From: a virus
Taxonomy: Duplodnaviria > Heunggongvirae > Uroviricota > Caudoviricetes
Strand: one strand, 5' to 3'
Length of the DNA: 64,000 bases
Virus record (IMG/VR): IMGVR_UViG_2695420523_000009
Span: 12,534-76,533 of that record
A program made the position numbers and the translations under genes. The notes beneath the pieces are model-generated. The model had not been told where the DNA came from. It searched no databases and saw only the letters and a program-made list of their open reading frames with translations. Of this stretch, positions 750 to 62,037 are shown piece after piece (position 1 is the stretch's first letter; every line of letters begins with the position of its first letter).

Positions 750-2078
750 CTATTGTGCGTACTCGCCCAATTTTAATGTTTCACGCTTATATTCATCAAC
801 TATCTCACATGATTTAATATAGATATGGCACAATAGGTTATCACTATCATCATTATCGTTTATTGCCATAAGTGCCAACTTTTTCTCATATTCATCGATC
901 GCATCACTCAACTGATCACCTGTAATTACATCTGACTCACTCGAGAAATATAACTGCCCAAGATTTACCGCATTTTTTCCAGTTTTTCTTTGCTCTATGT
1001 AATTTTTAATCATATCCTTCACATCCTTTTCACTACTCAGTATTTCACTTTCGAAATGGACATGCTCTGAAATCGACGCGACTCTGCAACCGATCAAACG
1101 ATGAATATAGTCATCAATAGACGTAACACTATCATTAGCTTTTTTTAGTGCTTCATCAAAAATGCTCTTTACCTCATTTGGCAAATTTTTAAAATAATCA
1201 TCAATTAAACCAGATAATGGTGTTTGGTAGTTCATTAATACCGATGAAGCAACTTGCGGACGACGAGCCACCCAGATTTCTTTGACTTCAACTTGAGAAT
1301 AATATTCCTTAATCACGTTCCAAAAGTATTTTAACATCTTGGTTTTAAATATTTTATCAAATCTATCCTTTATAAATAGCTCTACTTCAGGCATGCTTGA
1401 ATAAGCATCATCAAAGAATATTTCATCTTTGAAAAAATCATATTTATTTAATAAAGCATACAGTTTTTTTGAATCCAGCGGTTCACGAGAATCGATGTCC
1501 AATCCAAAAACTGCAATAACCAACTTCATTTGCGGTGGTATTTTTCCACTCAATTGAATAATATATTCCATTTTTTCATCAAAACAATTTCCATCTATGT
1601 AAAATCGGTTATCTACATAGACTAATATATTGGTAATATGTTTTATGTACTGAATAACCTCATGCTTTCTTACCAATGGATAAAAAAACGAATGCATTTC
1701 ATTTTTATTAAATTGTTTTTTTGTCTGTTCAATGATTGGTATGACATTATTGTACAACTCATCATGCTGATTTAATAAAGTGTCAAACCATTCTTTGAAA
1801 GAATTTTTTCTCATCTCAATCAATGAATCGGTAGTTATCCTAACGGCCTCCAGTGCTGCCTTTGCACTTTTTCTTGCTTCATAGGCGTTCCACGCTGTTG
1901 CACAAAAAGCCGCTGTCGTTATAAAACTACTCAATACAGCAATTTGGTCTGTAACCTTCCAATCTTGAAATGGCTCAAGTAGTAAACCTAAAAACAAAAT
2001 TATTATGGAAAACATTAGAATTGCAACAGAAATAAAAACAGGCATGTATGCTCTCGTACTTACCATTGTTAGTTGCAT
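750..2078 (-). CDS. membrane-anchored hypothetical protein (2 predicted N-terminal TM helices); candidate abortive-infection/defence cargo
   Basis: 442 aa ORF, clearly more AT-rich than the phage backbone; hydrophobic N-terminus (PVFISVAILMFSIIILFLGLLL) then a large soluble Lys/Asp/Glu-rich domain; no catalytic motif recognised. Confidence 0.6.
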   Translation of the reverse strand: MQLTMVSTRAYMPVFISVAILMFSIIILFLGLLLEPFQDWKVTDQIAVLSSFITTAAFCATAWNAYEARKSAKAALEAVRITTDSLIEMRKNSFKEWFDTLLNQHDELYNNVIPIIEQTKKQFNKNEMHSFFYPLVRKHEVIQYIKHITNILVYVDNRFYIDGNCFDEKMEYIIQLSGKIPPQMKLVIAVFGLDIDSREPLDSKKLYALLNKYDFFKDEIFFDDAYSSMPEVELFIKDRFDKIFKTKMLKYFWNVIKEYYSQVEVKEIWVARRPQVASSVLMNYQTPLSGLIDDYFKNLPNEVKSIFDEALKKANDSVTSIDDYIHRLIGCRVASISEHVHFESEILSSEKDVKDMIKNYIEQRKTGKNAVNLGQLYFSSESDVITGDQLSDAIDEYEKKLALMAINDNDDSDNLLCHIYIKSCEIVDEYKRETLKLGEYAQ

Positions 2079-2542: not shown

Positions 2543-2575
2543 AATGATTCCATACCTACTATGTATGGAATCATT
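2543..2575. repeat. perfect 13-7-13 inverted repeat (AATGATTCCATAC-ctactat-GTATGGAATCATT); candidate recombinase core site
   Basis: Exact 13-bp inverted arms with 7-bp spacer, about 100 bp upstream of the tyrosine recombinase gene; lox/dif-like architecture. Confidence 0.5.
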
Positions 2576-2673
2576 ACTGAAAATGAGTTACTTTTACTCT
2601 TGATCCTATAAGAATCTATGCCTAATATACTGTTTACTTATACAGTGAATCGGCGTAACTCGGTGATTGTCAT

Positions 2674-3777
2674 ATGAAAAATAGCTTTGACAGAGCACGC
2701 GCTGCGGAGAACACCTCAAAAGAGGCGATTGAGTATCTCGAAAGAGCATCTCAAATGCAGGCCGTTATGATCTCGCAGGTTAGCAATGATATGAGATTCT
2801 CGGACGCATTCATGTTATTTACTCGCTTATCTCTGCTGATAACCAGACGTCGGCCAGAGATCGCTGTTCATTGTATTTTGATACATGTTTTGCCGCACAT
2901 TGCCGATGTAAAAGTAAGTGACATTAATAGGTTCATGGTGAACCAACTGGTCAACCCACTAATACTGGATGGCAAAATTGTTATGGGCCGCCGCGTTTTC
3001 TCTCTGATGAAGCAGTTCCTTAGCTGGTGCGCCTTCCAGGGGATGATAGACGTGTCACCGTTAAACGATATGTCACTAAACAAAGTTGCCGGTGGCGCAA
3101 AGCCCACACCTCGCGAGCGGAAGCTGACCGACGCAGAGGTATGGGTGTTCTGGAATATATGGGACTACTTCAATGTGTGCGCTGGTACAAAATGGGCGGC
3201 CAGGCTGTGTCTTGTATCCGCAAGACGACCTGACGAAGTACTGCGGGCTAAAAAAAGTGAGTTCAATCTTAAGCGTGGGGTTTGGAATCAAGGCAAGAGG
3301 AACAAATCTGCCCGTGAGCATTCGCTGCCTTTAAGCACATTAATGCGCACATGTATTGAAGAGTTGTTCGAATACGGTAAAGGCAGCCAGTGGCTCGTGC
3401 CTTCGAATAAAAAAATCGGGAAAGATCTTCCTATGTCTAAAGTGGCAATAGCCCAGGCATTACGTCGTATCCTGGAACGACCAGAACTGATGGAGCTTGA
3501 GCCATTTACACCCCGAGACTTGCGCCGTACTGCGCGTAGTTACTTCCCAGCATTAGGCATAAGCCAGGAGGTATCACGCAAAATCATGAACCACAGTCTT
3601 GAGGGGATAGATCGAGTCTACGACCGGCACGATTATATGGACGAGATGCGAGACGCCTTAGAAAGTTTCTCGACGTACATCGCATCAATCGTAGAGCAAC
3701 CGGATTTAGACGAAATTGACCACAAATTCAAGGGAGATCGTCTATCAACAGAGCTTATTCGTGTAAATTTTTCATAG
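2674..3777 (+). CDS. tyrosine recombinase (phage-integrase family, core-binding + catalytic domains, no arm-binding domain)
   Basis: Catalytic signature ARRPDE ... RDLRRTARS ... NHSLEGIDRVYDRHDY (R-H-R-Y); 367 aa, lacking the N-terminal arm-type DNA-binding domain of P4-like integrases. Confidence 0.85.
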   Translation: MKNSFDRARAAENTSKEAIEYLERASQMQAVMISQVSNDMRFSDAFMLFTRLSLLITRRRPEIAVHCILIHVLPHIADVKVSDINRFMVNQLVNPLILDGKIVMGRRVFSLMKQFLSWCAFQGMIDVSPLNDMSLNKVAGGAKPTPRERKLTDAEVWVFWNIWDYFNVCAGTKWAARLCLVSARRPDEVLRAKKSEFNLKRGVWNQGKRNKSAREHSLPLSTLMRTCIEELFEYGKGSQWLVPSNKKIGKDLPMSKVAIAQALRRILERPELMELEPFTPRDLRRTARSYFPALGISQEVSRKIMNHSLEGIDRVYDRHDYMDEMRDALESFSTYIASIVEQPDLDEIDHKFKGDRLSTELIRVNFS

Positions 3778-4158
3778 AGACTTTATGGCCTCAACAACCT
3801 TTTGTGATGCGCCTTTCTCTTTACCGAATCGCTCGTTATATGCAGCAAGAACCTGTTTTTCGTCCTCGTTAAGAGGAGCGGTGCCTTCTTTGTATAAAAA
3901 TGCTGCGAGTTCAGGTTGGCGTTCTTCCAGCACCATCATCATAAGACGACTTGGCTCAATACCCAGCGCCAGCGCCAACGGACGAACCTTATCGATAGGC
4001 AAAGGAATTTTGCCACTTTTAATTAAAGAAAGGTTGTTGGCATTTTTATAACCAATAAGTCTGGCTATTTGGGCCTGACTCATAGGTGAGGATTCAATCA
4101 GCCCTGCGATAAAAGCAGCATAGCGACTTTCTATAAATTCAATCTTGTTGTCAGACAT
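3772..4158 (-). CDS. XRE-family helix-turn-helix transcriptional regulator
   Basis: SQAQIARLIGYKNANNLSLIKSGK HTH_XRE-like motif; 128 aa; convergent with the recombinase gene. Confidence 0.8.
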   Translation of the reverse strand: MSDNKIEFIESRYAAFIAGLIESSPMSQAQIARLIGYKNANNLSLIKSGKIPLPIDKVRPLALALGIEPSRLMMMVLEERQPELAAFLYKEGTAPLNEDEKQVLAAYNERFGKEKGASQKVVEAIKSL

Positions 4159-4189
4159 TGTTACAACCTTTGCGCGTTCAATTCTCTCT

Positions 4190-4203
4190 GGTAAGTGCTT
4201 ACC
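4190..4203. promoter_or_regulatory. palindrome GGTAAGtgCTTACC in promoter region of the XRE regulator (candidate auto-operator)
   Basis: 6-bp inverted arms with 2-bp spacer, about 35 bp upstream of the regulator start codon; GGTAAG/CTTACC half-sites recur nearby (about 4310 and 4375). Confidence 0.4.
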
Positions 4204-4408
4204 GATATTACATCAAAGGTTAGGGTTGTAAAGCTATTATCATTTTTTCGATAGGCACTTAAAAGACCGGTTAAAGGCCATTGCACGGAGAAAAATTAGC
4301 CCAAAACAGGTAAGAAAATTAACTTGCATATGATATGAATGTATTCAGTATTGATATAAATTTTAGTAGTATTCCTTACCATAGTATAAGTTAGAATGGA
4401 TTGATTGA

Positions 4409-4719: not shown

Positions 4720-6828
4720 ATGTCTAAAAAACGTTCCATCAAAGAGGTTCAGGACTTCCGTGACAGTGTAAAACGAGTAGTCGCTCTCCTTTCAGGTAAA
4801 AACATCCCTGTTGCAGAACGAGGGGACGACGCTTATGTACGCTATAACGATGATGGAGAGCCAATTCTCGTAAACATCCCATCAATCCCGGATAACGCAA
4901 CACCGGCATTGATGAATGCTGTGCGCGGATTTCTCGATCATGAGGTTGCTCACATTTTGTTTACCGATATTCGTGTGTCCAACAAAATGAGAGAAAAAGG
5001 ACGCGTTCCTTCCTGGTCGCTATGGAATGCCTTAGAAGACGTGTTCATCGAGCGAAAAATGGGTCAGGTCTTTAACGGAACAAGACGTAATCTGATGGCA
5101 ACTCAGCGCCTTATAATCGAAAAAGTCTTTAAACCAAAGGCTTCAGAGGCTATTGCTTATTGTGGCAAAGATCAGCGCGCGCTTTTTCTAAACTTCTTTC
5201 TCTGTCCGGTTGTAAGAGCCTGGGATGGCCAAGCACCGTTCGTAGATTTCATGGATGAACATTGGCCTGTCATTGAGAAACCAATTTCATTATTAAAAGA
5301 ACATGGTATCGATGTGGCCGTGCGTAACATGTCTTGCACCGAGGATTGTGTAAAGGTGGCTGCGACCATAGCTAAGATCCTCAAAGACACTGAAAGTGAA
5401 AGCAAAGGTAAGGAGTCAGCTCCGGGAAAAACTTCCGATCCTTCAGACGCTGACCAGACGGATGCCTCTGGAGAAAACAATGAAGACAACGAAGATCATG
5501 AGACTCCCTCAGTGTTAGATAATTACAAATCTATCAAATCAGAATCACATAGTAAGTACAAACATGATAATAACGACAGTGATGATTCAGATAATTCTGA
5601 ATCATCAGAAACAATATTCGATGATACAGAAAATGATAAAGAGGTATCAGATTCTGATGCTTCTGATAACGCGGCGTCAGAATCATTAACCGCTGACCAC
5701 GAAAAAAGAAAAACGACAGAAGACGGCTCTTCAGATATCCCAACTCCGTCAAAAATGAGTCTGGAAGAGGCTTTAGAGGAGTTGGATAGCATGGAAGATG
5801 AAGTCGGAGGCATGACAGAAGATGCGCTATCCGAAACGATTAAAAGCGAGTTAACAGAAAGCTCGAAAAGCGAATACAGGCCATACAATCGCTCATACGA
5901 CTTCATCGGCTCGATTGATCAGGCAGAAGCCCATATCAAACGGCTTATTAAAACATTCTCCGATATTGATTTGGGAGGATATCCAATCAGCCGCTATCGC
6001 ATCGTTCCTGAAGGCAACCAGCTCTTCGACAAATATATTGAAAAGCATCTTTCGTCAGGTGTTTCGTCGACGCTGGCAAAAGACCTGGAGCGAGCAATAG
6101 CAAGCAGAAACAGAGTTCAGTTTATACCGGGCCAGCGTCGGGGGCGCATTCATGGTTCTAGTATCTACAGATTAGCAATGAATGATGCTCGCGTGTTTCG
6201 TAAAAAAGAAGAATCTAAAGCCGTTAACGCCTGTGTTCAACAAGTGATTGATTTATCAGGTTCAATGAGTGGTATAACGATTAAACTGGCTCTTGCAAGT
6301 GCATATACCATCGCCGATGCCCTTGATCGAATAAATGTTCCCAACATTATCACCGGCTTCACTACATTTGGTAGTCATATGGCGGCAGGAGAACTTAAGG
6401 CTGTCAAGTATGAGTTCTCTCGCTTTGAATCTTTAATGCTACCTATCATCAAAAATTGGAATGAAAAGGTAAATTCTCGCGAAGTTCGCTCACGTATGGG
6501 GTGTGTAGGCTACACATTCCCACTTCTTAATAACGTGGATGGTGAAAGCATAGCCAGCCTTGCATCGTTATTTTCCGGTCGCATGGAGGACAGGAAGATC
6601 ATGCTTGTTCTGAGTGATGGCGCGCCGTGGGCTGTTGGGAGAGGTTTTGACGCTCATTTGCGTTCAGTTGCGAAGCAAATTGAAACGCAGACTGATATTG
6701 ATTTGATGGCAATTGGCATCATGACTGACGCACCGGAGAGATTTTACTCAAATCATGCCCTGGTAACGAGCGTTGATAGTCTTGGTTCATCTGTAGTTAC
6801 TGAACTATCTCGTATCATTTTAAAGTGA
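4720..6828 (+). CDS. cobT: CobT-like von Willebrand factor A domain protein
   Basis: 702 aa; long acidic Asp/Glu/Ser linker in the middle; C-terminal vWA with MIDAS motif (VIDLSGSMSG); paired with a downstream CobS-like ATPase. Confidence 0.75.
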   Translation: MSKKRSIKEVQDFRDSVKRVVALLSGKNIPVAERGDDAYVRYNDDGEPILVNIPSIPDNATPALMNAVRGFLDHEVAHILFTDIRVSNKMREKGRVPSWSLWNALEDVFIERKMGQVFNGTRRNLMATQRLIIEKVFKPKASEAIAYCGKDQRALFLNFFLCPVVRAWDGQAPFVDFMDEHWPVIEKPISLLKEHGIDVAVRNMSCTEDCVKVAATIAKILKDTESESKGKESAPGKTSDPSDADQTDASGENNEDNEDHETPSVLDNYKSIKSESHSKYKHDNNDSDDSDNSESSETIFDDTENDKEVSDSDASDNAASESLTADHEKRKTTEDGSSDIPTPSKMSLEEALEELDSMEDEVGGMTEDALSETIKSELTESSKSEYRPYNRSYDFIGSIDQAEAHIKRLIKTFSDIDLGGYPISRYRIVPEGNQLFDKYIEKHLSSGVSSTLAKDLERAIASRNRVQFIPGQRRGRIHGSSIYRLAMNDARVFRKKEESKAVNACVQQVIDLSGSMSGITIKLALASAYTIADALDRINVPNIITGFTTFGSHMAAGELKAVKYEFSRFESLMLPIIKNWNEKVNSREVRSRMGCVGYTFPLLNNVDGESIASLASLFSGRMEDRKIMLVLSDGAPWAVGRGFDAHLRSVAKQIETQTDIDLMAIGIMTDAPERFYSNHALVTSVDSLGSSVVTELSRIILK

Positions 6829-6923
6829 ACAAAACAGCCTTAACGATAAGTAACCACTTACGATATATAATGATATATTTATATAAGAAGTTGAACGCTC
6901 ATTAGAGAACAAAGGAAAAACGC

Positions 6924-8159
6924 ATGACGACTACTGCACTGCAAAATGAAAAAAATCCTTCTGATTACCTTGTTTGCAAGTGGTGCGGCAAATCATTTCA
7001 CTATTTTAAGTCCCATGTAGCCAATGGTAATTGCGAGGGCATTCCTGAGTCAGTAAAAGATGCCGATCCTGACACCGTACTGAAAATGTACACAACGCAG
7101 TTTCCAGATGAACCAACGCTATCGAAAAAGGCACTTGATGCAATTCAAGCTAAACGTGCCGAGCAAAAAAGCGAAATGGCCAAATCTTCTGGCTTGACCA
7201 GTAGCCCTGGCTACACAGGCACAGTTGAGTACAAGACAGATCTGGTCGCAGCTCACGAACTGCTAAACGTAACGGTGGAAGAACTCGGAACAAAACGTGG
7301 GACGCCGCTCATGGTTAGCGTCAACGTCAATACGCCGTATCCAGAGTTCGTTCCCGAAGTGAAGAAAGGCTACGTATATGGCGACTTCGAACTGATCAAA
7401 GATATTTTCATGATGCTTGAACTTGGCATACCTGGCTATTTGTGGGGTCATGCAGGAACAGGCAAATCGTCATTGCCTACACAGCTATGTGCTTTGCTCA
7501 ATCGTCCGTTGATCCGTGCCCAACATACAGCATCAATGGAAGAGGCACATGTTACGGGGCAAATTCTGGCGCGTGATGGCTCTACGTATTTCGAACCTGG
7601 CTTGCTTGCGCTCGCAATGAAGCATGGCTGGGTTTACCTCGCGGATGAATACGACTTTGCGTTTCCACAAATTCTTGGCGTGTATCAGCCAGTGCTGGAA
7701 GGTGAAGCGTTGGTCATCAAAGAGGCAACTCCAGAATGGCGTCGCATTACTCCGCATGAACGGTTTGCTTTCATTGGCACTGGCAACACGAACGGATCTG
7801 GTGATGAAACCGGCTTGTACCAGGGTACAAACATCCAGAACGCCGCGAACTTTTCGCGTTTTGGCATCGTTTCGAATGTGAAATACATGAGCAAAGACGC
7901 AGAGATCAACATGTTGACAAATGCAGGCATCGTGGATGAATACGCTGAAAAGATGGTTAAGTTTGCCGGTATCGTTCGCGATGGATACGAAGAACACCTC
8001 ATTAGTCAGCCAATTGGCCCTCGTGAACTTTTGTTGTCGGCCAAGATTGGAATGATGCGAGGCGACTTTGTGACAGGTATTGAGCGTTCTTTCATTAACA
8101 AACTCCCTTCAGCTTCTGCACAAGCGGCTCGTGAAGTTGTTCAAAAAATATTTGGTTAA
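6924..8159 (+). CDS. cobS: CobS-like AAA+ ATPase (MoxR family)
   Basis: Walker A GHAGTGKSS, Walker B VYLADEYD, N-terminal Cys-rich stretch (CKWCGKSFHYFKSH); RBS AAAGGAAAAACGCATG. Confidence 0.8.
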   Translation: MTTTALQNEKNPSDYLVCKWCGKSFHYFKSHVANGNCEGIPESVKDADPDTVLKMYTTQFPDEPTLSKKALDAIQAKRAEQKSEMAKSSGLTSSPGYTGTVEYKTDLVAAHELLNVTVEELGTKRGTPLMVSVNVNTPYPEFVPEVKKGYVYGDFELIKDIFMMLELGIPGYLWGHAGTGKSSLPTQLCALLNRPLIRAQHTASMEEAHVTGQILARDGSTYFEPGLLALAMKHGWVYLADEYDFAFPQILGVYQPVLEGEALVIKEATPEWRRITPHERFAFIGTGNTNGSGDETGLYQGTNIQNAANFSRFGIVSNVKYMSKDAEINMLTNAGIVDEYAEKMVKFAGIVRDGYEEHLISQPIGPRELLLSAKIGMMRGDFVTGIERSFINKLPSASAQAAREVVQKIFG

Positions 8160-8339: not shown

Positions 8340-11300
8340 ATGAAGGCACTGATGGTTCGAACTGACTTCTCACTTGGGGAGTCGGCTCTAAAAGCAGAAA
8401 ACGCGGTGAAGATTGCCAGAGAAGCTGGCTACACCGCTGTAATTTCAGCAGATAGCATGAATATTGCGAGCGTTATTCCACTACAACGTGCCGCTGGTGA
8501 CGACATGGCGGTTATTTGTGGTGTGAAACTAAACATTGTTGATGATCCCACATACGAGCACCGGGCTAAACTTGCTAAAGAATCTATGAGATGTATGGAA
8601 TCATTAGAGCGGGGACGTAACTACTCGTTTACCGCTCTAATTAAAAATGAGCAAGGATATCGCGACATCTGCGAACTAATGACGGTGGCCAACACACGAG
8701 AACAGTTCTACTTTGTACCGCGTCTCTCGCTCGAACAGTTGGTTTCTACATATGCCAAAGGCAACATCATCCTGCTCACTTCCGACATCGGTAGCGTGTT
8801 CCAACGCAACGATTTTGCAAAAATCATAAGCTCACTGATTACAGCGGGCGGGAAAGACAACTTCTATAGTGTGGTTTATCCGCACCCTACCCCATTCTAC
8901 GACCAGATTAACGTCCGAGCGATGAAAGTCGCCAGCGCACTGAAAATAGAGCCAGTAGCGTTCTATCCCGCTTATTACGAATCGATCGACGATGCAGACA
9001 TTAAAGACATTGCGCACATGGTTACGAACAACATAAAAATCGACCAGCCGCATCGTCTGCGTATCCCCCACCAGCGAGATAACGCCATCAATGGTCGTCG
9101 CCATCTCCTTGAGGCGCTTAAAGCCTTCTCCGTTCGCATGGATGTGCCGGTAACAGCTGCAATGGCCTCAACAACGCAGGACTCCATTATCGATGCCTGC
9201 ACATGGCGCTGGCATGAATTGCCACCAGCACTGCCCAAGATGGCAGACGACGAACCTGCAACGCTGATGAAACTGGCTGTTGCAGGGCTGCGTAAACGTC
9301 TTACCACAAAAGAGTTTGGATACACACCACCTGCTTCTGAGAACAGGGTTTATGTTGAGCGGCTAAAGTACGAAATGGACACGCTGACTCGCCTGGGATT
9401 CTGTGGTTACTTCCTGATGGTACGCGATCTGATGAATCACAGCCGTGAAACTGGCATTCCTGTCGGGCCTGGTCGTGGTTCCTCTGCCGGTTCTCTGGTG
9501 GCGTGGTGCATAGGCATAACCAACGTCGACCCAATCCGTCACGGTCTTCTGTTTGAGCGTTTCATCAACCCTGAGCGTCTCGACTTGCCGGATGCGGACT
9601 TGGACTTCAGCCAGGCACGTCGCCATGAGGTGATCGAGTATCTGAATGAACGCTACGACGAAGATTACGTTGCAGGCATTCCGAACTTCACCTACCTGGG
9701 CGCAGCCTCTGCACTACGTGACACCGCTCGTATTTATGGTGTGGAGTCCGCAGATATGGCGGTATCAAAAGAACTGAAGAACGTCGAGGATGATAGCCTT
9801 CCATTGGAAGAGCTGCGCGAACAACTGGCAAGTCTCGACAAATACGCAACAAAATATCCTGATGCATTCAATGCAGCCTGCAAGTTACAAAGCCTTATGC
9901 GTGGCTTTGGTAGACATGCGGCAGGGATGATCGTAGCAGGTGTTCCTCTAACAGAACGTACACCGGTTGAGCGCCGTGGTGACGCGCGTTGTATCGCATT
10001 TGACAAGCGTTACTGCGAGGCTATGGGCCTAATTAAGCTGGACGTACTTGGTCTGGCAACTCTCGATTTGCTCGATAGTGCAAAACGCTACATAAAAGAG
10101 AACACAGGTGAAGATATCAATCTTGATGCCATTTCTCTTGAAGATCGCAAGGTGCTGGATGGTTTTGCTGCTGGGTACACTCAAGGTGTTTTCCAGCTTG
10201 AATCAGGCCCAATGCGCAAGCTGCTTAAAGATTTAGGTGGTGGAATTGAGCCAATGAGCTTTAAAACGGTTGTTGCTACGACTGCGCTCTTCCGGCCGGG
10301 GCCAATTCAGTCAGGCATGTTGGATGACTATGTTTCTGTAGCCAAAGGCTTTATGACGCCGGAATCATTACACCCCGTTCTTGATGAACTTACCGCAGAA
10401 ACAAATGGCGTGATTCTCTATCAGGAACAGACGATGAACGCGACTCGATTGCTTGCTGGCTTCACAATGGCTGAAGCTGACGGCGTTCGTAAAGCGATCG
10501 GTAAAAAAGACATGGAAAAAATGAAGAGCATGGGCGAGAAGTTCATCGTTCAGGCTCAAGCTGGCTGGATAGACGTTGAGCTGGAAGATGGCACTACACA
10601 GCGCATTCACCGTGCGGAACATTTTAAATGCGAAGACGGAACTCTGAAAACTGTCGAAGAGGCACTTGAGTACGGCGCAAAACTACCTATAAACGCAGTA
10701 CGCGTTACAGCGTCACATCCAGGGCTATCAGAGATGAAAGCGAAGGAGATCTGGACCGCATTCGAAAAGAATGGTGCCTACCAGTTCAACAAATCACACT
10801 CTGTTGCTTACTCCTTAATCAGTTATCAATCTATGTGGTTGAAAACTCATTATCCCGCGGAGTTCTTCGCTGCTGCTCTCACTATTCTTGGCGAAGATAA
10901 ACACCAGGGGCTGGTTAAAGATGCGCTGACCTATGGTATTCGCGTATTGCCACCAGACGTTAACGTGTCATCTAACCGAATCGAGATCCGCACGCTTGAA
11001 GATGGCAGCCAGGTGCTGTATGCGCCCTTCTCTGCTGTGAAAGGGTGTTCTGAGAATGGCTGCCAAGCCATCATGAGAGCGCGAGAAAAAGTTGGCGGCA
11101 AATTCGAGTCACTGGCGCAATTCGAAGAAGCTGTCGAGAAACGTGCCTGTAATAGTCGAGTGCGCGAATCGCTGCAAAAAGTAGGGGCGTTTGCATCCAT
11201 CGAGCCAGGCAGTCTGCCAGCAACTGATCCAGAGCGCCTACGCGACCAGGCTGAATTGATGGGAAACCTTGTCATAGACGCAGTTAAAGCCTCACGTCCG

Positions 11301-11858
11301 TTTGAGATGAACCCCAAACGTTCGGCTGAAATTAACGTACTCATGACGCGGATGGCGGCTGAAATGGGCTTAGGTGATGAACTAATCCGCCCCAGCATTG
11401 GTATTAAGCCGAAAATCATGATCATTCTGGACAATGCGAACGGCAATGATGCTCGAACCGGTTACTTTATGGAGAACGGATACGACGACTTTAAGGCCAA
11501 GCTATTGACGGCTGGAGATTTACGCATGGGCGATCTCTATGTCACAGGTGTTTGCAAGAAGGTTAAAGACAAAGAAAAAGACTACACCAAAGACGAGATC
11601 GGCCAGTTCACCGACTTTATGCGTGAAGAGATCAATCTGGTGCGTCCGACCTATGTGCTGACGTGTGGCAGCCGGGCAACTTCATTGTTTAACAACAAAA
11701 ACAAGCCATCCGATTTGGTCGGCAGGAAGGAGTATCTTCCAGACCTTGACGTTACTGTCTTTTACGGGTTTAACCCCAACATTCTTTACTTCAGACCTGA
11801 AGAGGGAGAACGACTAGAAGCGATATTAGCCGACGTAGCAGAAACCATTAAGACGTGA
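8340..11858 (+). CDS. dnaE: DNA polymerase III alpha-subunit-like replicative polymerase (DnaE family, PHP + polymerase core)
   Basis: 1172 aa; N-terminal PHP-like region (MVRTDFSLGESALKAENAVKIAREAGYTAVISADSMN) and DnaE-type core; start in conserved context AAAAACACATG. Confidence 0.9.
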   Translation: MKALMVRTDFSLGESALKAENAVKIAREAGYTAVISADSMNIASVIPLQRAAGDDMAVICGVKLNIVDDPTYEHRAKLAKESMRCMESLERGRNYSFTALIKNEQGYRDICELMTVANTREQFYFVPRLSLEQLVSTYAKGNIILLTSDIGSVFQRNDFAKIISSLITAGGKDNFYSVVYPHPTPFYDQINVRAMKVASALKIEPVAFYPAYYESIDDADIKDIAHMVTNNIKIDQPHRLRIPHQRDNAINGRRHLLEALKAFSVRMDVPVTAAMASTTQDSIIDACTWRWHELPPALPKMADDEPATLMKLAVAGLRKRLTTKEFGYTPPASENRVYVERLKYEMDTLTRLGFCGYFLMVRDLMNHSRETGIPVGPGRGSSAGSLVAWCIGITNVDPIRHGLLFERFINPERLDLPDADLDFSQARRHEVIEYLNERYDEDYVAGIPNFTYLGAASALRDTARIYGVESADMAVSKELKNVEDDSLPLEELREQLASLDKYATKYPDAFNAACKLQSLMRGFGRHAAGMIVAGVPLTERTPVERRGDARCIAFDKRYCEAMGLIKLDVLGLATLDLLDSAKRYIKENTGEDINLDAISLEDRKVLDGFAAGYTQGVFQLESGPMRKLLKDLGGGIEPMSFKTVVATTALFRPGPIQSGMLDDYVSVAKGFMTPESLHPVLDELTAETNGVILYQEQTMNATRLLAGFTMAEADGVRKAIGKKDMEKMKSMGEKFIVQAQAGWIDVELEDGTTQRIHRAEHFKCEDGTLKTVEEALEYGAKLPINAVRVTASHPGLSEMKAKEIWTAFEKNGAYQFNKSHSVAYSLISYQSMWLKTHYPAEFFAAALTILGEDKHQGLVKDALTYGIRVLPPDVNVSSNRIEIRTLEDGSQVLYAPFSAVKGCSENGCQAIMRAREKVGGKFESLAQFEEAVEKRACNSRVRESLQKVGAFASIEPGSLPATDPERLRDQAELMGNLVIDAVKASRPFEMNPKRSAEINVLMTRMAAEMGLGDELIRPSIGIKPKIMIILDNANGNDARTGYFMENGYDDFKAKLLTAGDLRMGDLYVTGVCKKVKDKEKDYTKDEIGQFTDFMREEINLVRPTYVLTCGSRATSLFNNKNKPSDLVGRKEYLPDLDVTVFYGFNPNILYFRPEEGERLEAILADVAETIKT

Positions 11859-12532: not shown

Positions 12533-13561
12533 ATGTCTAAGACATTACTTGATTTGCTTAACAAAACTCGTGAAGACATTGCCGCCAAACGTGGTAACAA
12601 CGTTGATCTGACTCGCTTAAAAGACGGCGTCAACTATATCCGCATCTTCCCGAATAAAGACGACCCAAACGGTAAGTTCTTCCAGACTTTCGGTATGCAC
12701 TACGTTAAGTATCAGAACGAGGAAGGTAAAGAAGCAACCAACGCTTATATTTGTGAGCAACATACTCACGGTCGCGCTTGTCAGCTATGCGAAATGGTGA
12801 TGGAAGGTCGCGCTCGTCACAAGGGTAACAAAGCAATGGAAGAACGCATCGGTCAAATGCGTGCCACTCCTCGCTACCTGGTCAACGGCATTCTTTCTGC
12901 TCGTGAGGATTTCGCAGATGCTGAGAAATGCCAGTTAATCGAGCTGCCGTCTACTGTATTCGATGATATCTGCAAAGCAATCACCGAAGACATCGCTGAT
13001 GATATCGGCAATCCACTGAGCAAAGAGGAAGGCTACGCATTCCTGATTAAACGTACTGGCTCTGGTCGCGATACCAAATATGACGTCTCGCCTAAGCGTA
13101 AAGTCTACAAAGGCGATATCGAAGATAAATTCTGGAATACCCAGCATGATCTGATCGCATACGCAAATCAAGCTGATGAAACTCGTCTTCTGTCGACAGT
13201 TCGCACTATGGGTCGTCTGATTGGCATCGCTGCACCAACTGCCGCAGCATCTGCACCAGCAATTTCCTCAACCGCGAAAACATCGGCTGCGGCACTACCT
13301 GGATTTGGCTCTGTCACTGGTCATACGGAGGGTGCGACTGCTGTAGCTACCGCTCATACCCCAGCTTCTGAACCAACCAGTCTGGTTGATGAAGAAATCC
13401 TCCGTGCCGTTGAAACTGAATTTAAACCAGAAGCAAGTCCCGCTGCCGTTGCAGTATCAGTCAAAGAGTCTGAAGCAGTCGCAGCGACATCTGTAGCAGC
13501 CGCATCTGCGACGGAAGATGAAGGTCTGGATGACCTACTGAGAGAGCTGGACTCTCTGTAA
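12533..13561 (+). CDS. single-stranded DNA-binding protein, T4 gp32-like
   Basis: IRIFPNKDDPNGKFF resembles gp32 IRFLPSKNDE; Zn-site-like C-x2-H-x-H-x3-C-x2-C (CEQHTHGRACQLC); Ala-rich linker and acidic C-terminal tail (EDEGLDDLLRELDSL). Confidence 0.7.
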   Translation: MSKTLLDLLNKTREDIAAKRGNNVDLTRLKDGVNYIRIFPNKDDPNGKFFQTFGMHYVKYQNEEGKEATNAYICEQHTHGRACQLCEMVMEGRARHKGNKAMEERIGQMRATPRYLVNGILSAREDFADAEKCQLIELPSTVFDDICKAITEDIADDIGNPLSKEEGYAFLIKRTGSGRDTKYDVSPKRKVYKGDIEDKFWNTQHDLIAYANQADETRLLSTVRTMGRLIGIAAPTAAASAPAISSTAKTSAAALPGFGSVTGHTEGATAVATAHTPASEPTSLVDEEILRAVETEFKPEASPAAVAVSVKESEAVAATSVAAASATEDEGLDDLLRELDSL

Positions 13562-19134: not shown

Positions 19135-20190
19135 CTATTTGCGAGTCTTTGCCTTGCGCAACTCTTCGAGAAGCGCCAGTTCTTCTTTACTCAACATGAC
19201 CATTTTGCCTTCTTTTTCGTCAGGCACAACGTCGATAATGTCATCTTGATTCTCATCTGGGAGGCTATATTCCGTCTCATCATTATCGATTTTTGTTGAT
19301 ATTTGTGCCTGGCGTAACTTTGGCCGCCTATAGTGGATGACGAAGTAGACCGAGTTTCCGCGCTTAACTTCCGTGTAATCGAGATATCCTATCTCTCGCA
19401 GCTGTTCCATAGCCTTTCTTACCGTCGCATTCTGAGTAATAGTGCGACTTGTCAGATTAAGTCTGGCGCGTAAACGGGCTAGTGATATTGGTGCCGGATC
19501 AGGCGGCAAACTTTCAATAAAAGTATAAAGCGCCTGAGCGGATTCTTTTCTTGAGAGTTCGTTTATAGCCCGGAGTTGCAGAAGAACCTTTTTGTCGAAC
19601 TGGTAGAGTTCGAAAATCTTGGGATCTGCTTTCAGTTCGACCGTATCGTGCTTGACACTATATTTTGCCGTTTGCACAAGATGCGTTACGTAAAACTCAT
19701 CAGAGCCTTTGCTACGGAACGAGATGGTATTTGTGGCAATACGGCTTAGCGAACTGTCCAGGCGTTTGCGTAACTTCGCTGATGACCTGGCGGTCGGAAT
19801 GCCACACAGTCTTACAAACTCAACGAACGGCAACGTGACAGTATCGCCAACGACCTTGTGTTTGGCAAACGCGTGGATTATTCCCACCCACGTTTTAAAG
19901 TCGTTATCCATATCAAGCCGAAGGCCAGAGATCCTTATGTCTTCGTACCCTTCGGCTTTTGCCAGAGACAGCTGTTTGAGTTCAGCAGAGGCATCCATAG
20001 AGACCATTTGCCCCTTTCTTCCTCTGGATGTCGATTTCAGCGTCGGAACGAAGAGGCCCAGACGCATCAAAGCAACAGGCTGAACAGTGTTATTAGTGTT
20101 AGGAACCAACGTAACAACTTCGCCTGTCTTTTTATCTGTTTCTGAAAATGCTTCAACGATCGCTATGTTTTTATTGCCGTTTTCGCTCAT
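19135..20190 (-). CDS. repA: plasmid-type replication initiator, RepA-like (iteron-binding; RepFIB/P1 RepA family suspected)
   Basis: 351 aa; N-terminal [17 protein letters not shown] motif recalled from RepFIB/P1-type RepA; flanked on both sides by iteron arrays. Confidence 0.75.
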
Positions 20191-38252: not shown

Positions 38253-38290
38253 NNNNNNNNNNNNNNNNNNNNNNNNNNNNNNNNNNNNNN
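38253..38290. other. assembly gap (run of 38 N)
   Basis: Literal N characters in the sequence. Confidence 1.
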
Positions 38291-43511: not shown

Positions 43512-44012
43512 ATGAGTAACAAAATCGAAAACCCCGTAGTTCTCATTCACAAGCGTGAGAACCACGACTCCTATGCGGTGGCGATCACCAATGGGAGTCA
43601 CGATTATTACGATGGTCTGCTAATGGCCTCAGTGTCGCCTGATGAGGCAGACAACTCTTTTGCCGTCTTCGCTATGGTTGGTTACTACATGGCTGCCGAA
43701 ATTGAGAAGTTGCGGGCGCAGAGAGACGCATTAGCGGCGGAGAATGCAGCCCTGAAAGAATCTGAGCGAGCATTCGATGAGATGTGTGCCGACGAACACG
43801 GAGATAATTGGGTTAGCGAATTAACGGAGACTCCAGCCACCGATGCTTTTCTGGCTGAAGTACGTGCGCAAGGCGTGGATATGGCTCGTAACGCGATGAT
43901 TGATTTTGTTGATGGTGAAGTTGGGCCAAACAAGAACGTTCCGGGGCTGATTAGAGGCGCAGAGATATGCGTAAGTATTGCTGAACAGCTTCGTAAAGGA
44001 GTCGAAGAGTGA
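43512..44012 (+). CDS. hypothetical protein
   Basis: 166 aa, start context AGAGAAAAACACATG. Confidence 0.55.
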   Translation: MSNKIENPVVLIHKRENHDSYAVAITNGSHDYYDGLLMASVSPDEADNSFAVFAMVGYYMAAEIEKLRAQRDALAAENAALKESERAFDEMCADEHGDNWVSELTETPATDAFLAEVRAQGVDMARNAMIDFVDGEVGPNKNVPGLIRGAEICVSIAEQLRKGVEE

Positions 44013-60670: not shown

Positions 60671-61369
60671 GTGGATTGTAGCAATAAAATGGATGTAAAA
60701 ATCACGATTTTGCAGGTTGATGTTGCCAACCTTCGCCCGAATACCTGGAACACCAATTCGGTTGGTGCGCAGAATTTTGAAAAACTGAAAGGTTCTATCG
60801 AAAAATTGGGCTTTTTTAAGCCAATTTTGGCTCGTGAACTTGAAGATGGATTTTTTGAAATCCTCGGCGGTGAACATCGCTGGCGTGCTGCTATTGAGCA
60901 AGGAATTTCAACGGTTCCGGTGCTTTCTGTGGGCAAAATTAGCGATGTCGTAGCTAAACAGATGTCACTGGTGGACAACGAGCGATACGGTGAAGACGAC
61001 CAAATCGCATTGCAACGCTTCATTGAAGAAATTCAGTCAGAACTTGACTATCAACTGTCTGAAATCGCCCCGTATGACGACGAAATCTCGATGGTTTTAG
61101 CAAAAGAGGCGGCAATCGACCTTGAAGCACTGGAGGCGTTGTCTCGTGGTAGTGATGAGCCTGTCGATACCGACAAACGAGAGAAAACCGAACGTGTGGG
61201 TGCGGAACATCAGACCATGCGCTTCAAAGTAACTTTCGATGCGTCAGATCGTGTTGCAGAAACCATAAAAAACATCATCAAAGAGCAGGCTATTAACACC
61301 GGTAATGAAATGGAGAACGCTGGTGAGGCTCTGGTGTGGCTGGTTGACTACTACAAGGAGCGTATGTAA
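60671..61369 (+). CDS. ParB-like N-terminal (ParB/Srx) domain protein 1
   Basis: ParB/Srx core ILGGEHRWRAAIEQG; start uncertain (GTG 60671 or ATG 60689); stop overlaps next start. Confidence 0.7.
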   Translation: MDCSNKMDVKITILQVDVANLRPNTWNTNSVGAQNFEKLKGSIEKLGFFKPILARELEDGFFEILGGEHRWRAAIEQGISTVPVLSVGKISDVVAKQMSLVDNERYGEDDQIALQRFIEEIQSELDYQLSEIAPYDDEISMVLAKEAAIDLEALEALSRGSDEPVDTDKREKTERVGAEHQTMRFKVTFDASDRVAETIKNIIKEQAINTGNEMENAGEALVWLVDYYKERM

Positions 61370-62037
61370 TGACCAAAAAGTTTGAAATCGTATATCGCGA
61401 CCCGGCAGATCTTATTCCCTATGAGATGAATGCCAAAAAGCATGATGAACAGCAGATCCGAGATCTAGCCGCAGCCATTAAAAAGCGCGGATTTGACCAG
61501 CCAATTACGGTCGATAAGAACGACGTAATTATTACTGGCCACGGCCGCCGTGAGGCTGCAATTTTTGCTGGACTTGAGCGCGTACCGGTTATTGTTCGCG
61601 ATGATCTCAGTGATGACGAGGTTCGTGCGAAGCGCCTTGAAGATAACCGACTTGCCAGCATTGATTACGATGCAATTAAGCTACAGAAAGAGCTTGAGTC
61701 GCTTGTTCTGGACGATATCGAGGTTTTCGGCTTTGAAGAGCGTGAGTTGAATGTTCTCGTTGGCAGTATGACAGAAGAAATGGACACCGACTCGCTAGTT
61801 ATCGATCTTGGCGAAGAAACTAAACGACAGAAGGATGAACACACCGAGATCAGTCGTGAAGTTGCAGCGGAGGAAGTACGTGTTGTCGACGTATTGGGCT
61901 TTAAAACGCTCCCTGCTGGCTCTGCCATTGTTGTTGGTGATTTGCTTGCCCACATGGAAGAAATGACGGGAGAAAGCGGGGTAGACGCATTTGTGGCATA
62001 TGCGGAGAAGATCTCTTCCGGGGAGATGGCTGCATGA
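61369..62037 (+). CDS. ParB-like N-terminal (ParB/Srx) domain protein 2
   Basis: IITGHGRREAAIFAG ParB-box-like motif; acidic C-terminal half; 4-nt overlap with next gene. Confidence 0.7.
   Translation: MTKKFEIVYRDPADLIPYEMNAKKHDEQQIRDLAAAIKKRGFDQPITVDKNDVIITGHGRREAAIFAGLERVPVIVRDDLSDDEVRAKRLEDNRLASIDYDAIKLQKELESLVLDDIEVFGFEERELNVLVGSMTEEMDTDSLVIDLGEETKRQKDEHTEISREVAAEEVRVVDVLGFKTLPAGSAIVVGDLLAHMEEMTGESGVDAFVAYAEKISSGEMAA

Follow-up and report, generated by a model that had tools for sequence, protein, structure and literature searches.

A predicted Cre/lox-like recombinase and site on SSU5/pMT1-type phage-plasmids and related plasmids

Does the tyrosine recombinase of SSU5/pMT1-type phage-plasmids, which public annotations call an 'integrase', insert its element into a chromosome, or does it serve the plasmid that carries it? 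We addressed this question for one stretch of 64,000 nucleotides (hereafter the window; positions 12,534 to 76,533 of IMG/VR virus record IMGVR_UViG_2695420523_000009), which is part of an SSU5/pMT1-type Escherichia coli phage-plasmid and carries a 33-bp inverted repeat upstream of the recombinase gene. An earlier sequence-only reading had likened this repeat to the core sites of lox, dif and FRT and proposed a multimer-resolution or inversion system. In our comparative analysis, the best explanation of the repeat is that it is the recombination site of the adjacent recombinase, and the two together probably form a self-contained Cre/lox-like dimer-resolution system that keeps the plasmid monomeric.

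The repeat reads exactly AATGATTCCATAC-ctactat-GTATGGAATCATT at 2543-2575, so that the perfect 13-7-13 geometry described earlier holds. It cannot be extended, with an A at both 2542 and 2576, and the gap to the recombinase ATG, previously put at about 100 bp, measures 98 bp. The inner 11 bp (TGATTCCATAC) are the best-conserved portion of each arm, and the full site occurs once in the window. Random sequence of 64 kb would contain about 0.02 perfect 13/13 repeats with spacers of up to 20 nt (64000 x 21 x 4^-13). Perfection alone is nevertheless no argument for a site, because the window holds about eight perfect repeats of at least 11 bp, mostly terminator-like; the argument is the comparative evidence. 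A run of 38 N at 38253-38290, masked or unresolved, also mimics perfect inverted repeats in a naive scan.

Relatives were collected in two ways. A scan of IMG/VR for both arms with any spacer gave 79 loci, a sample selected by the arms, and a second sample, gathered via the protein alone, gave 62 loci of the recombinase clade. All 83 close loci had a full site 95-99 bp upstream of the gene (43-47 bp in a group of ~59% identity), and each of the 62 protein-collected loci had exactly one full site, 47-254 bp upstream. The repeat, whose absence from relatives had been named in advance as evidence against the proposal, was therefore found once upstream of the recombinase gene in 145 of 145 related loci. 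In the close loci the arms were exact while both flanks had diverged beyond recognition.

Across 45-100% protein identity, the arm sequence occurred in two types only. The six closest protein-collected loci (Yersinia pestis, Kluyvera, Buttiauxella and Chimaeribacter; 57-86% identity) carried the same type-1 arms as the window. The 56 distant loci (45-52% identity), from Pantoea, Rahnella, Erwinia, Xenorhabdus, Photorhabdus, Morganella, Hafnia, Ewingella and other genera, carried type-2 arms, TGACTCCAGAC-N7-GTCTGGAGTCA, with the 7-bp spacer geometry unchanged. Between the types, the same two positions are altered in both arms, in a compensatory manner. Such changes, which keep the palindrome, together with a location between two co-directional genes, would also suit a structural element, namely a terminator or an RNA or DNA hairpin between the glutaredoxin and recombinase genes. 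We regard this as most improbable. At 2468-2487 there is already a canonical terminator for the glutaredoxin gene, no T-run follows the palindrome, and an Rfam search matched no family (best E = 0.85), which led us to reject a known RNA family or terminator. Moreover, the arms are frozen in two types and do not drift with pairing kept, natural asymmetric sites (L110, L135, L137 and L141) would break the stem, partnerless solitary arms are conserved (see below), and the supposed loop can flip.

Two strains, Chimaeribacter californicus 2015-Iso6 (L088 and L135) and C. arupi 2016-Iso3 (L089 and L137), hold both modules, with type-1 arms beside a 57%-identical recombinase and type-2-like asymmetric arms, TGACGCCAGAC / GTATGGAGTCA, beside a 46%-identical one. 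Because single strains hold both arm types, each beside its own recombinase, a host factor that reads the arms was rejected as unlikely. In Pantoea pPANA1 the neighbours of the module (GGDEF, M24 peptidase, H-NS and TonB receptor) are unrelated to those in the window, which leaves the recombinase as the one protein that consistently travels with the site. We also rejected the adjacent helix-turn-helix (HTH) repressor (3772-4158, minus strand) as the site binder, given that its own promoter region lacks the motif and that it is absent beside the Pantoea module. This 128-amino-acid regulator, annotated as a 'putative repressor' in phage Cyrano, is convergent with the recombinase gene and overlaps its last 6 bp; its upstream region (4159-4408) contains several imperfect inverted repeats, and the 13-mer is not there. 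In one E. coli plasmid (L149, NZ_CP061531.1), ISKox3 of the ISL3 family lies at 4752-5972 between the site and promoter region and the recombinase start codon, which is a natural uncoupling of site from gene.

In the spacer, which is rich in A and T, a common core predominates (TTAATAG or, as its complement, CTATTAA); there are at least 20 variants, and both orientations relative to the gene occur. Variation and flipping of this kind can be tolerated only where a site recombines with a copy of itself. A flip could be seen directly between L002 and L038: of their 1,833 positions 5 differ, and among these, spacer positions 1, 4 and 7 together amount to an exact reverse-complement inversion of the spacer. 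The flanks carry a second footprint. Alignments with relatives break off at 2525-2543, where the site has its left edge. When 22 loci were compared with the window, the right 1.5 kb was 97-99.4% identical in all, and the left 1.5 kb was 100% identical, partially matched at 75-94%, or without a match. The ranking of relatives is discordant across the site: L003 is closest on the right (99.4%) but matches at 91.5% and partially on the left, whereas L057 is 98.1% identical on the right and 100% on the left. There are 28 left flank types versus 11 right ones. An A/T-rich motif, aaaattcaaaaaa in the window (where it lies 10-22 bp left of the site), recurs at a fixed distance of 10-25 bp on that side in most of 79 non-redundant left-flank types of both lineages, although these flanks are otherwise unrelated and the information content of the motif is low. 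The shared motif suggests that incoming left flanks derive from the left flanks of other family members and not from random DNA. It may be an accessory or DNA-bending element, e.g., an IHF or Fis site; a comparison of the motif with IHF and Fis did not find a clear consensus match. Altogether, an active recombinase working on a site with symmetric arms would leave such footprints, which provide supporting evidence, not proof. Integron-like cassette insertion was rejected, as the far junctions of the L001 and L003 inserts, which lie between the glutaredoxin gene and the site, contain no half-site or degenerate site (best candidate with 3 mismatches).

Three other loci (L004, L007 and L042; spacers TCTTTAG/TCCTTAG), whose recombinase is 98% identical to that of the window, have ~45 bp on each side of the site unlike the usual flanks. 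These form an extended imperfect palindrome, gaatcaa...site...ttgattc, which could be a sign of divergent promoters or of rearrangement close to the site.

The distribution of the module bears directly on its role. Among 5,426 complete E. coli genomes it was present in 251, at 254 places, all 254 on plasmids; a sensitive search with the 43-nt site region found 252 genomes, again on plasmids only, and no attB-like chromosomal match to the site appeared in these genomes even at E <= 10. In PLSDB the module occupies 938 places in 932 plasmids, whose hosts include Klebsiella, E. coli, Enterobacter, Y. pestis (the plague plasmid pMT1) and Salmonella. Plasmids of Y. pestis keep it, and so do 300-600 kb plasmids of Pantoea and Rahnella; its role is therefore plasmid-related and not phage-specific.

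A role on the phage side, to which dimer resolution would be secondary, could consist either in cyclising terminally redundant virion DNA after infection, as Cre can do for P1, or in promoting cointegrate formation and the swapping of modules between related phage-plasmids. It would agree with the terminase, portal and tail genes of the element, with the replacement hotspot left of the site and with the discordant relatedness across it. We nonetheless consider it distinctly unlikely, as the module resides on the Y. pestis and large Pantoea and Rahnella plasmids beside non-phage neighbours, and in a complete 111,656-bp relative the site lies ~47 kb from the terminase genes, so that it would rarely fall inside the terminal redundancy. 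Such roles would in any case be compatible with dimer resolution. That relative was also searched for a second full copy of the site, as had been recommended with the original proposal; it has one full site, and elsewhere solitary half-sites, i.e., one full site per replicon.

The protein itself matches Pfam Phage_integrase PF00589 (E = 6.8e-10, 39.4 bits versus a cutoff of 27.1), with a domain layout of a helical extension (residues ~1-45), a core-binding domain (~46-135) and a catalytic domain (~150-340). The match of the query to Phage_int_M PF22022 is weak (22.7 bits versus a cutoff of 27), and this domain is recorded for many clade members. The catalytic set consists of R185, K211, R281, R284, H307 and Y316. 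Neither the clade nor its P4-type relatives vary at R185, K211, R284 or Y316, and H307 is almost as strictly kept. The full R-H-R-Y signature ascribed to the protein earlier needs a slight correction: box II reads R-D-L-R rather than H-x-L-R, its His being replaced by Arg281, which is invariant in the clade. From the conserved residues and the fold, we infer that the recombinase is catalytically intact and predict an active enzyme.

The PF13356 arm-binding domain is absent from the query and from ~110 clade members, while relatives P0114-P0120 have it. In the alignment with P4-type relatives this domain is missing and ~45 residues of different sequence stand in its place; in the AlphaFold (AF2) model (pLDDT 81) the N-terminal half is all-helical, without an N-terminal beta-sheet. 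The description of the recombinase as arm-less is therefore borne out, although the core-binding domain is preceded by ~45 helical residues and so is not where the protein begins. Members of the clade are proteins of 340-380 amino acids on ~100-110 kb contigs or megaplasmids. Their nearest sequence relatives are P4-type integrases (26-34% identity, E = 1e-21 to 1e-37; 24-32% in full-length alignment), with which the motifs DLRRT and VYDRHDY are shared, and loss of the arm-binding domain from a P4-type integrase is the probable origin of the module.

In Foldseek searches the best fold match was lambda integrase 75-356 (1z19; TMt 0.69-0.70, E ~1e-6 to 1e-7), next Tn1549 integrase 82-397 (6en0; TMt 0.64) and then Xer proteins (5jk0, 4a8e, 5hxy), with a probability of 1.00 to all three groups. 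Matches to Cre chains gave E = 0.3-0.6. When PDB sequences were searched with a profile, Cre was not among the matches at E <= 10 and XerH was marginal (E = 0.019); among NCBIfam models no Xer model matched, and the sole match was the integrase domain PRK09692 at 33 bits versus a cutoff of 434. In the structural comparison with Cre and XerCD that had been suggested, the fold resembles that of Xer proteins, with lambda integrase closer still and Cre remote.

With such relatives, could the protein be a conventional integrase, with the palindrome as an attP core, that in certain circumstances inserts the element into a chromosome or a different replicon? The P4-type chromosomal integrases as closest relatives and the public annotation speak for it, as may some distant homologs on contigs of 500-900 kb. 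We consider it very unlikely. None of the 254 places is chromosomal and the site has no chromosomal match, on which grounds chromosomal integration was rejected, in agreement with the initial proposal. The arm-binding domain is absent, and the window contains no tRNA genes, consistent with the previous failure to see a tRNA-like attachment site. Finally, symmetric arms, at least 20 spacer types and flipped orientation are incompatible with a fixed attB.

The known systems differ in how closely they resemble this pair. P4-type (CP4-57/SXT-like) integrases, with PF13356, PF22022 and PF00589, have homologous core-binding and catalytic domains. In contrast to them, the recombinase lacks their ~60-90-amino-acid N-terminal arm-binding domain, is never chromosomal in E. 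coli, has no tRNA target, and has a palindromic symmetric site in place of an att site with arm-type sites. The lambda and Tn1549 integrases come structurally closest in the core-binding and catalytic domains, and the overlap region of lambda att is 7 bp, the same length as the spacer here. They are, however, only 14-17% identical, need arm-binding domains and accessory proteins, and integrate and excise, whereas neither arm sites nor a chromosomal target exist here. XerH/difH, XerS/difSL, archaeal XerA/dif and XerCD at cer/psi share the dimer-resolution role, one short palindromic site per replicon, and the fold. Unlike these, the recombinase is not a Xer protein by sequence and is plasmid-encoded with its site adjacent, and nothing indicates control by FtsK or accessory proteins, a feature beyond the reach of sequence comparison.

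The closest parallel is Cre/loxP of P1, where Cre keeps the prophage-plasmid monomeric (PMC7969092, PMC2409434). Both systems reside on a phage-plasmid and comprise a single recombinase without an arm-binding domain and one site per genome, upstream of the recombinase gene, with perfect 13-bp inverted arms and a short asymmetric spacer; in both the site acts like a breakpoint of recombination, and the expected role is to keep a low-copy prophage-plasmid monomeric. The differences are a spacer of 7 bp rather than 8, Arg in box II where Cre has His, no sequence similarity and weak fold similarity to Cre (Foldseek E ~0.3), an origin in the P4-type integrase lineage, additional conserved solitary half-sites, and activity that is here predicted. 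The simple-site (Cre/loxP-type) class is marked by a recombinase of core-binding and catalytic domains only and by one minimal site per replicon, with inverted arms of 11-13 bp around an asymmetric spacer of 6-8 bp; the ~45-residue helical extension aside, the present pair has both features, its site being 13-7-13.

Dimer resolution between two copies of the same site is the function we favour because there is one symmetric-armed site per replicon, an arm-less and apparently intact recombinase, and no external partner. From sequence comparison we infer that the recombinase binds the arms and is catalytic, and that dimer resolution is what the pair has been selected for. In the proposed mechanism, replication or homologous recombination would produce a head-to-tail dimer of the low-copy phage-plasmid, with two directly repeated sites on one molecule. 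Each 13-bp arm would be bound by one recombinase monomer, and the two sites would synapse as a tetramer. Y316 would then cut at the edges of the 7-bp spacer, two strand pairs would be exchanged via a Holliday junction, and the resulting monomers would be segregated by the partition system. The same reaction between co-resident related plasmids would make the site an evolutionary breakpoint. Of the two functions initially suggested for the locus, multimer resolution fits these data, and inversion does not, with one full site only and no inversion junctions.

Several points weigh against dimer resolution, or against parts of the evidence for it. The His-to-Arg change in box II is, judging by alignment, unusual for the superfamily, though invariant in the clade. 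The sharp left boundary could be the edge of a conserved gene-plus-regulatory block beside a variable cargo region, and a spacer could also be flipped by template switching during replication of a palindrome, with no recombinase involved. A four-gamete test on the flank types found no complete violation; the flank clusters are too fine for it, and the identity-discordance test is the more informative of the two. The site lies near the promoter of the gene and could owe part of its conservation to autoregulation. Lastly, conserved solitary half-sites are neither needed for nor explained by simple dimer resolution.

These half-sites are confined to the type-1 lineage, where a solitary arm, always followed by AT(C/T), is found at three conserved places: inside dnaE, at the start codon of a small MIPY... 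membrane-protein gene, and upstream of a tRNA cluster, just before a TATAAA element. The latter two lie just outside the window; in relatives, half-sites are at 1977 and 2989 (L001), at 964 and 1976 (L003), and at 43572, 53355 and 54367 (L150-L152, NZ_CP083480.1). The dnaE copy, whose arm encodes C-M-E-S-L on the plus strand, is exact in 26 of 26 covering loci (16 haplotypes), which had been collected without reference to the half-site. Its 13 columns show no variation, while 32 of the 53 columns in the codons on either side do (p = 6e-5). In type-2 phage-plasmids with the same gene order, dnaE has neither the half-site nor the CMESL peptide, and ~1.1 Mb of type-2 loci contain no solitary arms, yet the site and gene are kept. 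Conservation in type 1 and absence in type 2 therefore mark the half-sites as a lineage-specific addition, selected at the DNA level. A further arm-like sequence, GTTTGGAATCA, lies in the recombinase gene at 3280-3290. It is a one-mismatch copy in the window and exact in L084-L086 (an 86%-identical lineage), and is probably a coding coincidence because it encodes the invariant V-W-N-Q.

The half-sites could serve regulation, a roadblock, architecture or rare recombination. In the Rci/sfx shufflon of IncI plasmids, a tyrosine recombinase acts at sites with a 7-bp spacer and one conserved arm only, and the solitary half-sites resemble these in geometry; the dnaE and MIPY copies, separated by 10.8 kb, are in inverted orientation and have 20 identical bp in common. 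In contrast to the shufflon, the main site here is fully symmetric, and inversion would truncate dnaE. The expected junction, TACAGC...AATGATTCCATACATCTCAT joined to AGATTC..., was covered to at least 80% in 0 of 189 genomes, and inversion between these two half-sites was rejected for fixed states. In TnpI/IRS of Tn4430, one tyrosine recombinase binds a palindromic core as well as extra single copies of the motif as accessory sites. Those extra motifs lie within ~100 bp of the core, whereas the present ones are 4-6 kb away and inside genes. A second job for the recombinase at the half-sites, either as a regulator or roadblock coupling monomerisation to the expression of DNA polymerase and tRNAs, or as a rare Rci/sfx-like switch (the 10.8-kb inversion that splits dnaE), is a speculative idea to which we would give a small but real chance.

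The half-sites also bear on the possibility that the palindrome is mainly an operator, through which the recombinase or another regulator controls the recombinase promoter and the half-site genes, with recombination not the main role. The site stands just upstream of a putative promoter (TTGATC and TAATAT, 17 nt apart), whose hexamers, together with the block tgcctaatatactg, are kept across right flanks that have otherwise diverged. We propose this promoter from conservation alone; it agrees with the consensus at 8 of 12 positions, and a consensus promoter scan found none at its threshold. In the type-2 lineage a TAnAAT element lies 16-21 bp right of the site, so that the right arm overlaps the -35 region. 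Solitary half-sites conserved at three other places, one of them before a tRNA cluster, would likewise suit an operator, and their pattern resembles the dispersed asymmetric operators of C1, the repressor of the phage-plasmid P1. Against this, catalytic residues that are invariant over a deep clade imply selection for catalysis and hence a DNA substrate, the replicon contains no other full site, and the type-2 lineage keeps site and gene without half-sites. The promoter region of the HTH repressor (4159-4408) also lacks the motif. Moreover, autoregulation and recombination are compatible at one site, as in Tn3 res. We therefore regard a mainly regulatory palindrome as unlikely and retain dimer resolution as the probable function.

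Our literature search, outside which much of the subscription literature lies, returned no paper with the 13-mer arms, the site or a function for this recombinase, and the recombinase/site pair appears to be undescribed. Tyrosine recombinases are among the persistent genes of the SSU5/pMT1 supergroup, for which no site was described (Pfeifer et al., PMC7969092). As predicted here, the pair is a naturally diversified lox-like system with two arm specificities and at least 20 natural spacers. It is widespread and useful, and unsurprising in principle; the half-sites, conserved inside essential-looking genes, are its one strange feature. If dimer resolution is correct, the SSU5/pMT1/pHCM2 phage-plasmids and the big plasmids of Pantoea, Rahnella and Erwinia rely on one uncharacterised maintenance module, in a group of more than 900 sequenced plasmids from Klebsiella, E. 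coli, Enterobacter, Y. pestis and Salmonella. The module would then be a natural example of an integrase becoming a simple resolvase and would represent a new compact recombinase/site family, orthogonal to Cre/lox and Flp/FRT, whose spacer variants are candidates for heterospecificity. It would also offer a target for destabilising plasmids with resistance or virulence genes.

The features of the window are collected in the table below.

Features of the recombinase locus and of its replicon (window coordinates)
Feature	Position	Strand	Basis or remark
Tyrosine recombinase, arm-less, 367 amino acids	2674-3777	+	PF00589, fold, alignment
Core site, putative	left arm 2543-2555, spacer ctactat 2556-2562, right arm 2563-2575	.	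exact sequence
Recombinase promoter, putative	TTGATC 2600-2605, 17 nt, TAATAT 2623-2628	+	sequence reading and conservation
A/T-rich left-flank motif aaaattcaaaaaa	2521-2533	.	family consensus ~cAGAtTTcAAAaa
Solitary half-site AATGATTCCATAC + ATCTCAT	8586-8605 (arm 8593-8605)	-	inside dnaE, codons ~83-89, exact 13-mer
Rep3 initiator	19135-20190	-	
ParB-like gene	61369-62037		

The Rep3 initiator and the ParB-like gene bear out the plasmid-type replicon noted before. Escherichia phages Cyrano, PhiR41_1 and CMS-2020a share 95-99% identity with the region, which also matches 238 non-mobilizable E. coli and Shigella plasmids of ~110 kb; terminase, portal and tail genes are present in the complete relative. 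Downstream, the gene order is recombinase, convergent HTH regulator, CobT-like protein, AAA ATPase, DnaE and a gp32-like protein. The block at 4720-8159 and 8340-11858, which encodes the CobT-like VWA protein with its long acidic low-complexity middle, the AAA_5 ATPase and a full-length DnaE, follows the recombinase in all phage-plasmid relatives and is not beside the module in the Pantoea megaplasmids. In the variable region left of the glutaredoxin gene, an open reading frame of 442 amino acids (750-2078, minus strand) has no Pfam match; it is common only to a few relatives (L057, L062 and L068) and may be cargo.

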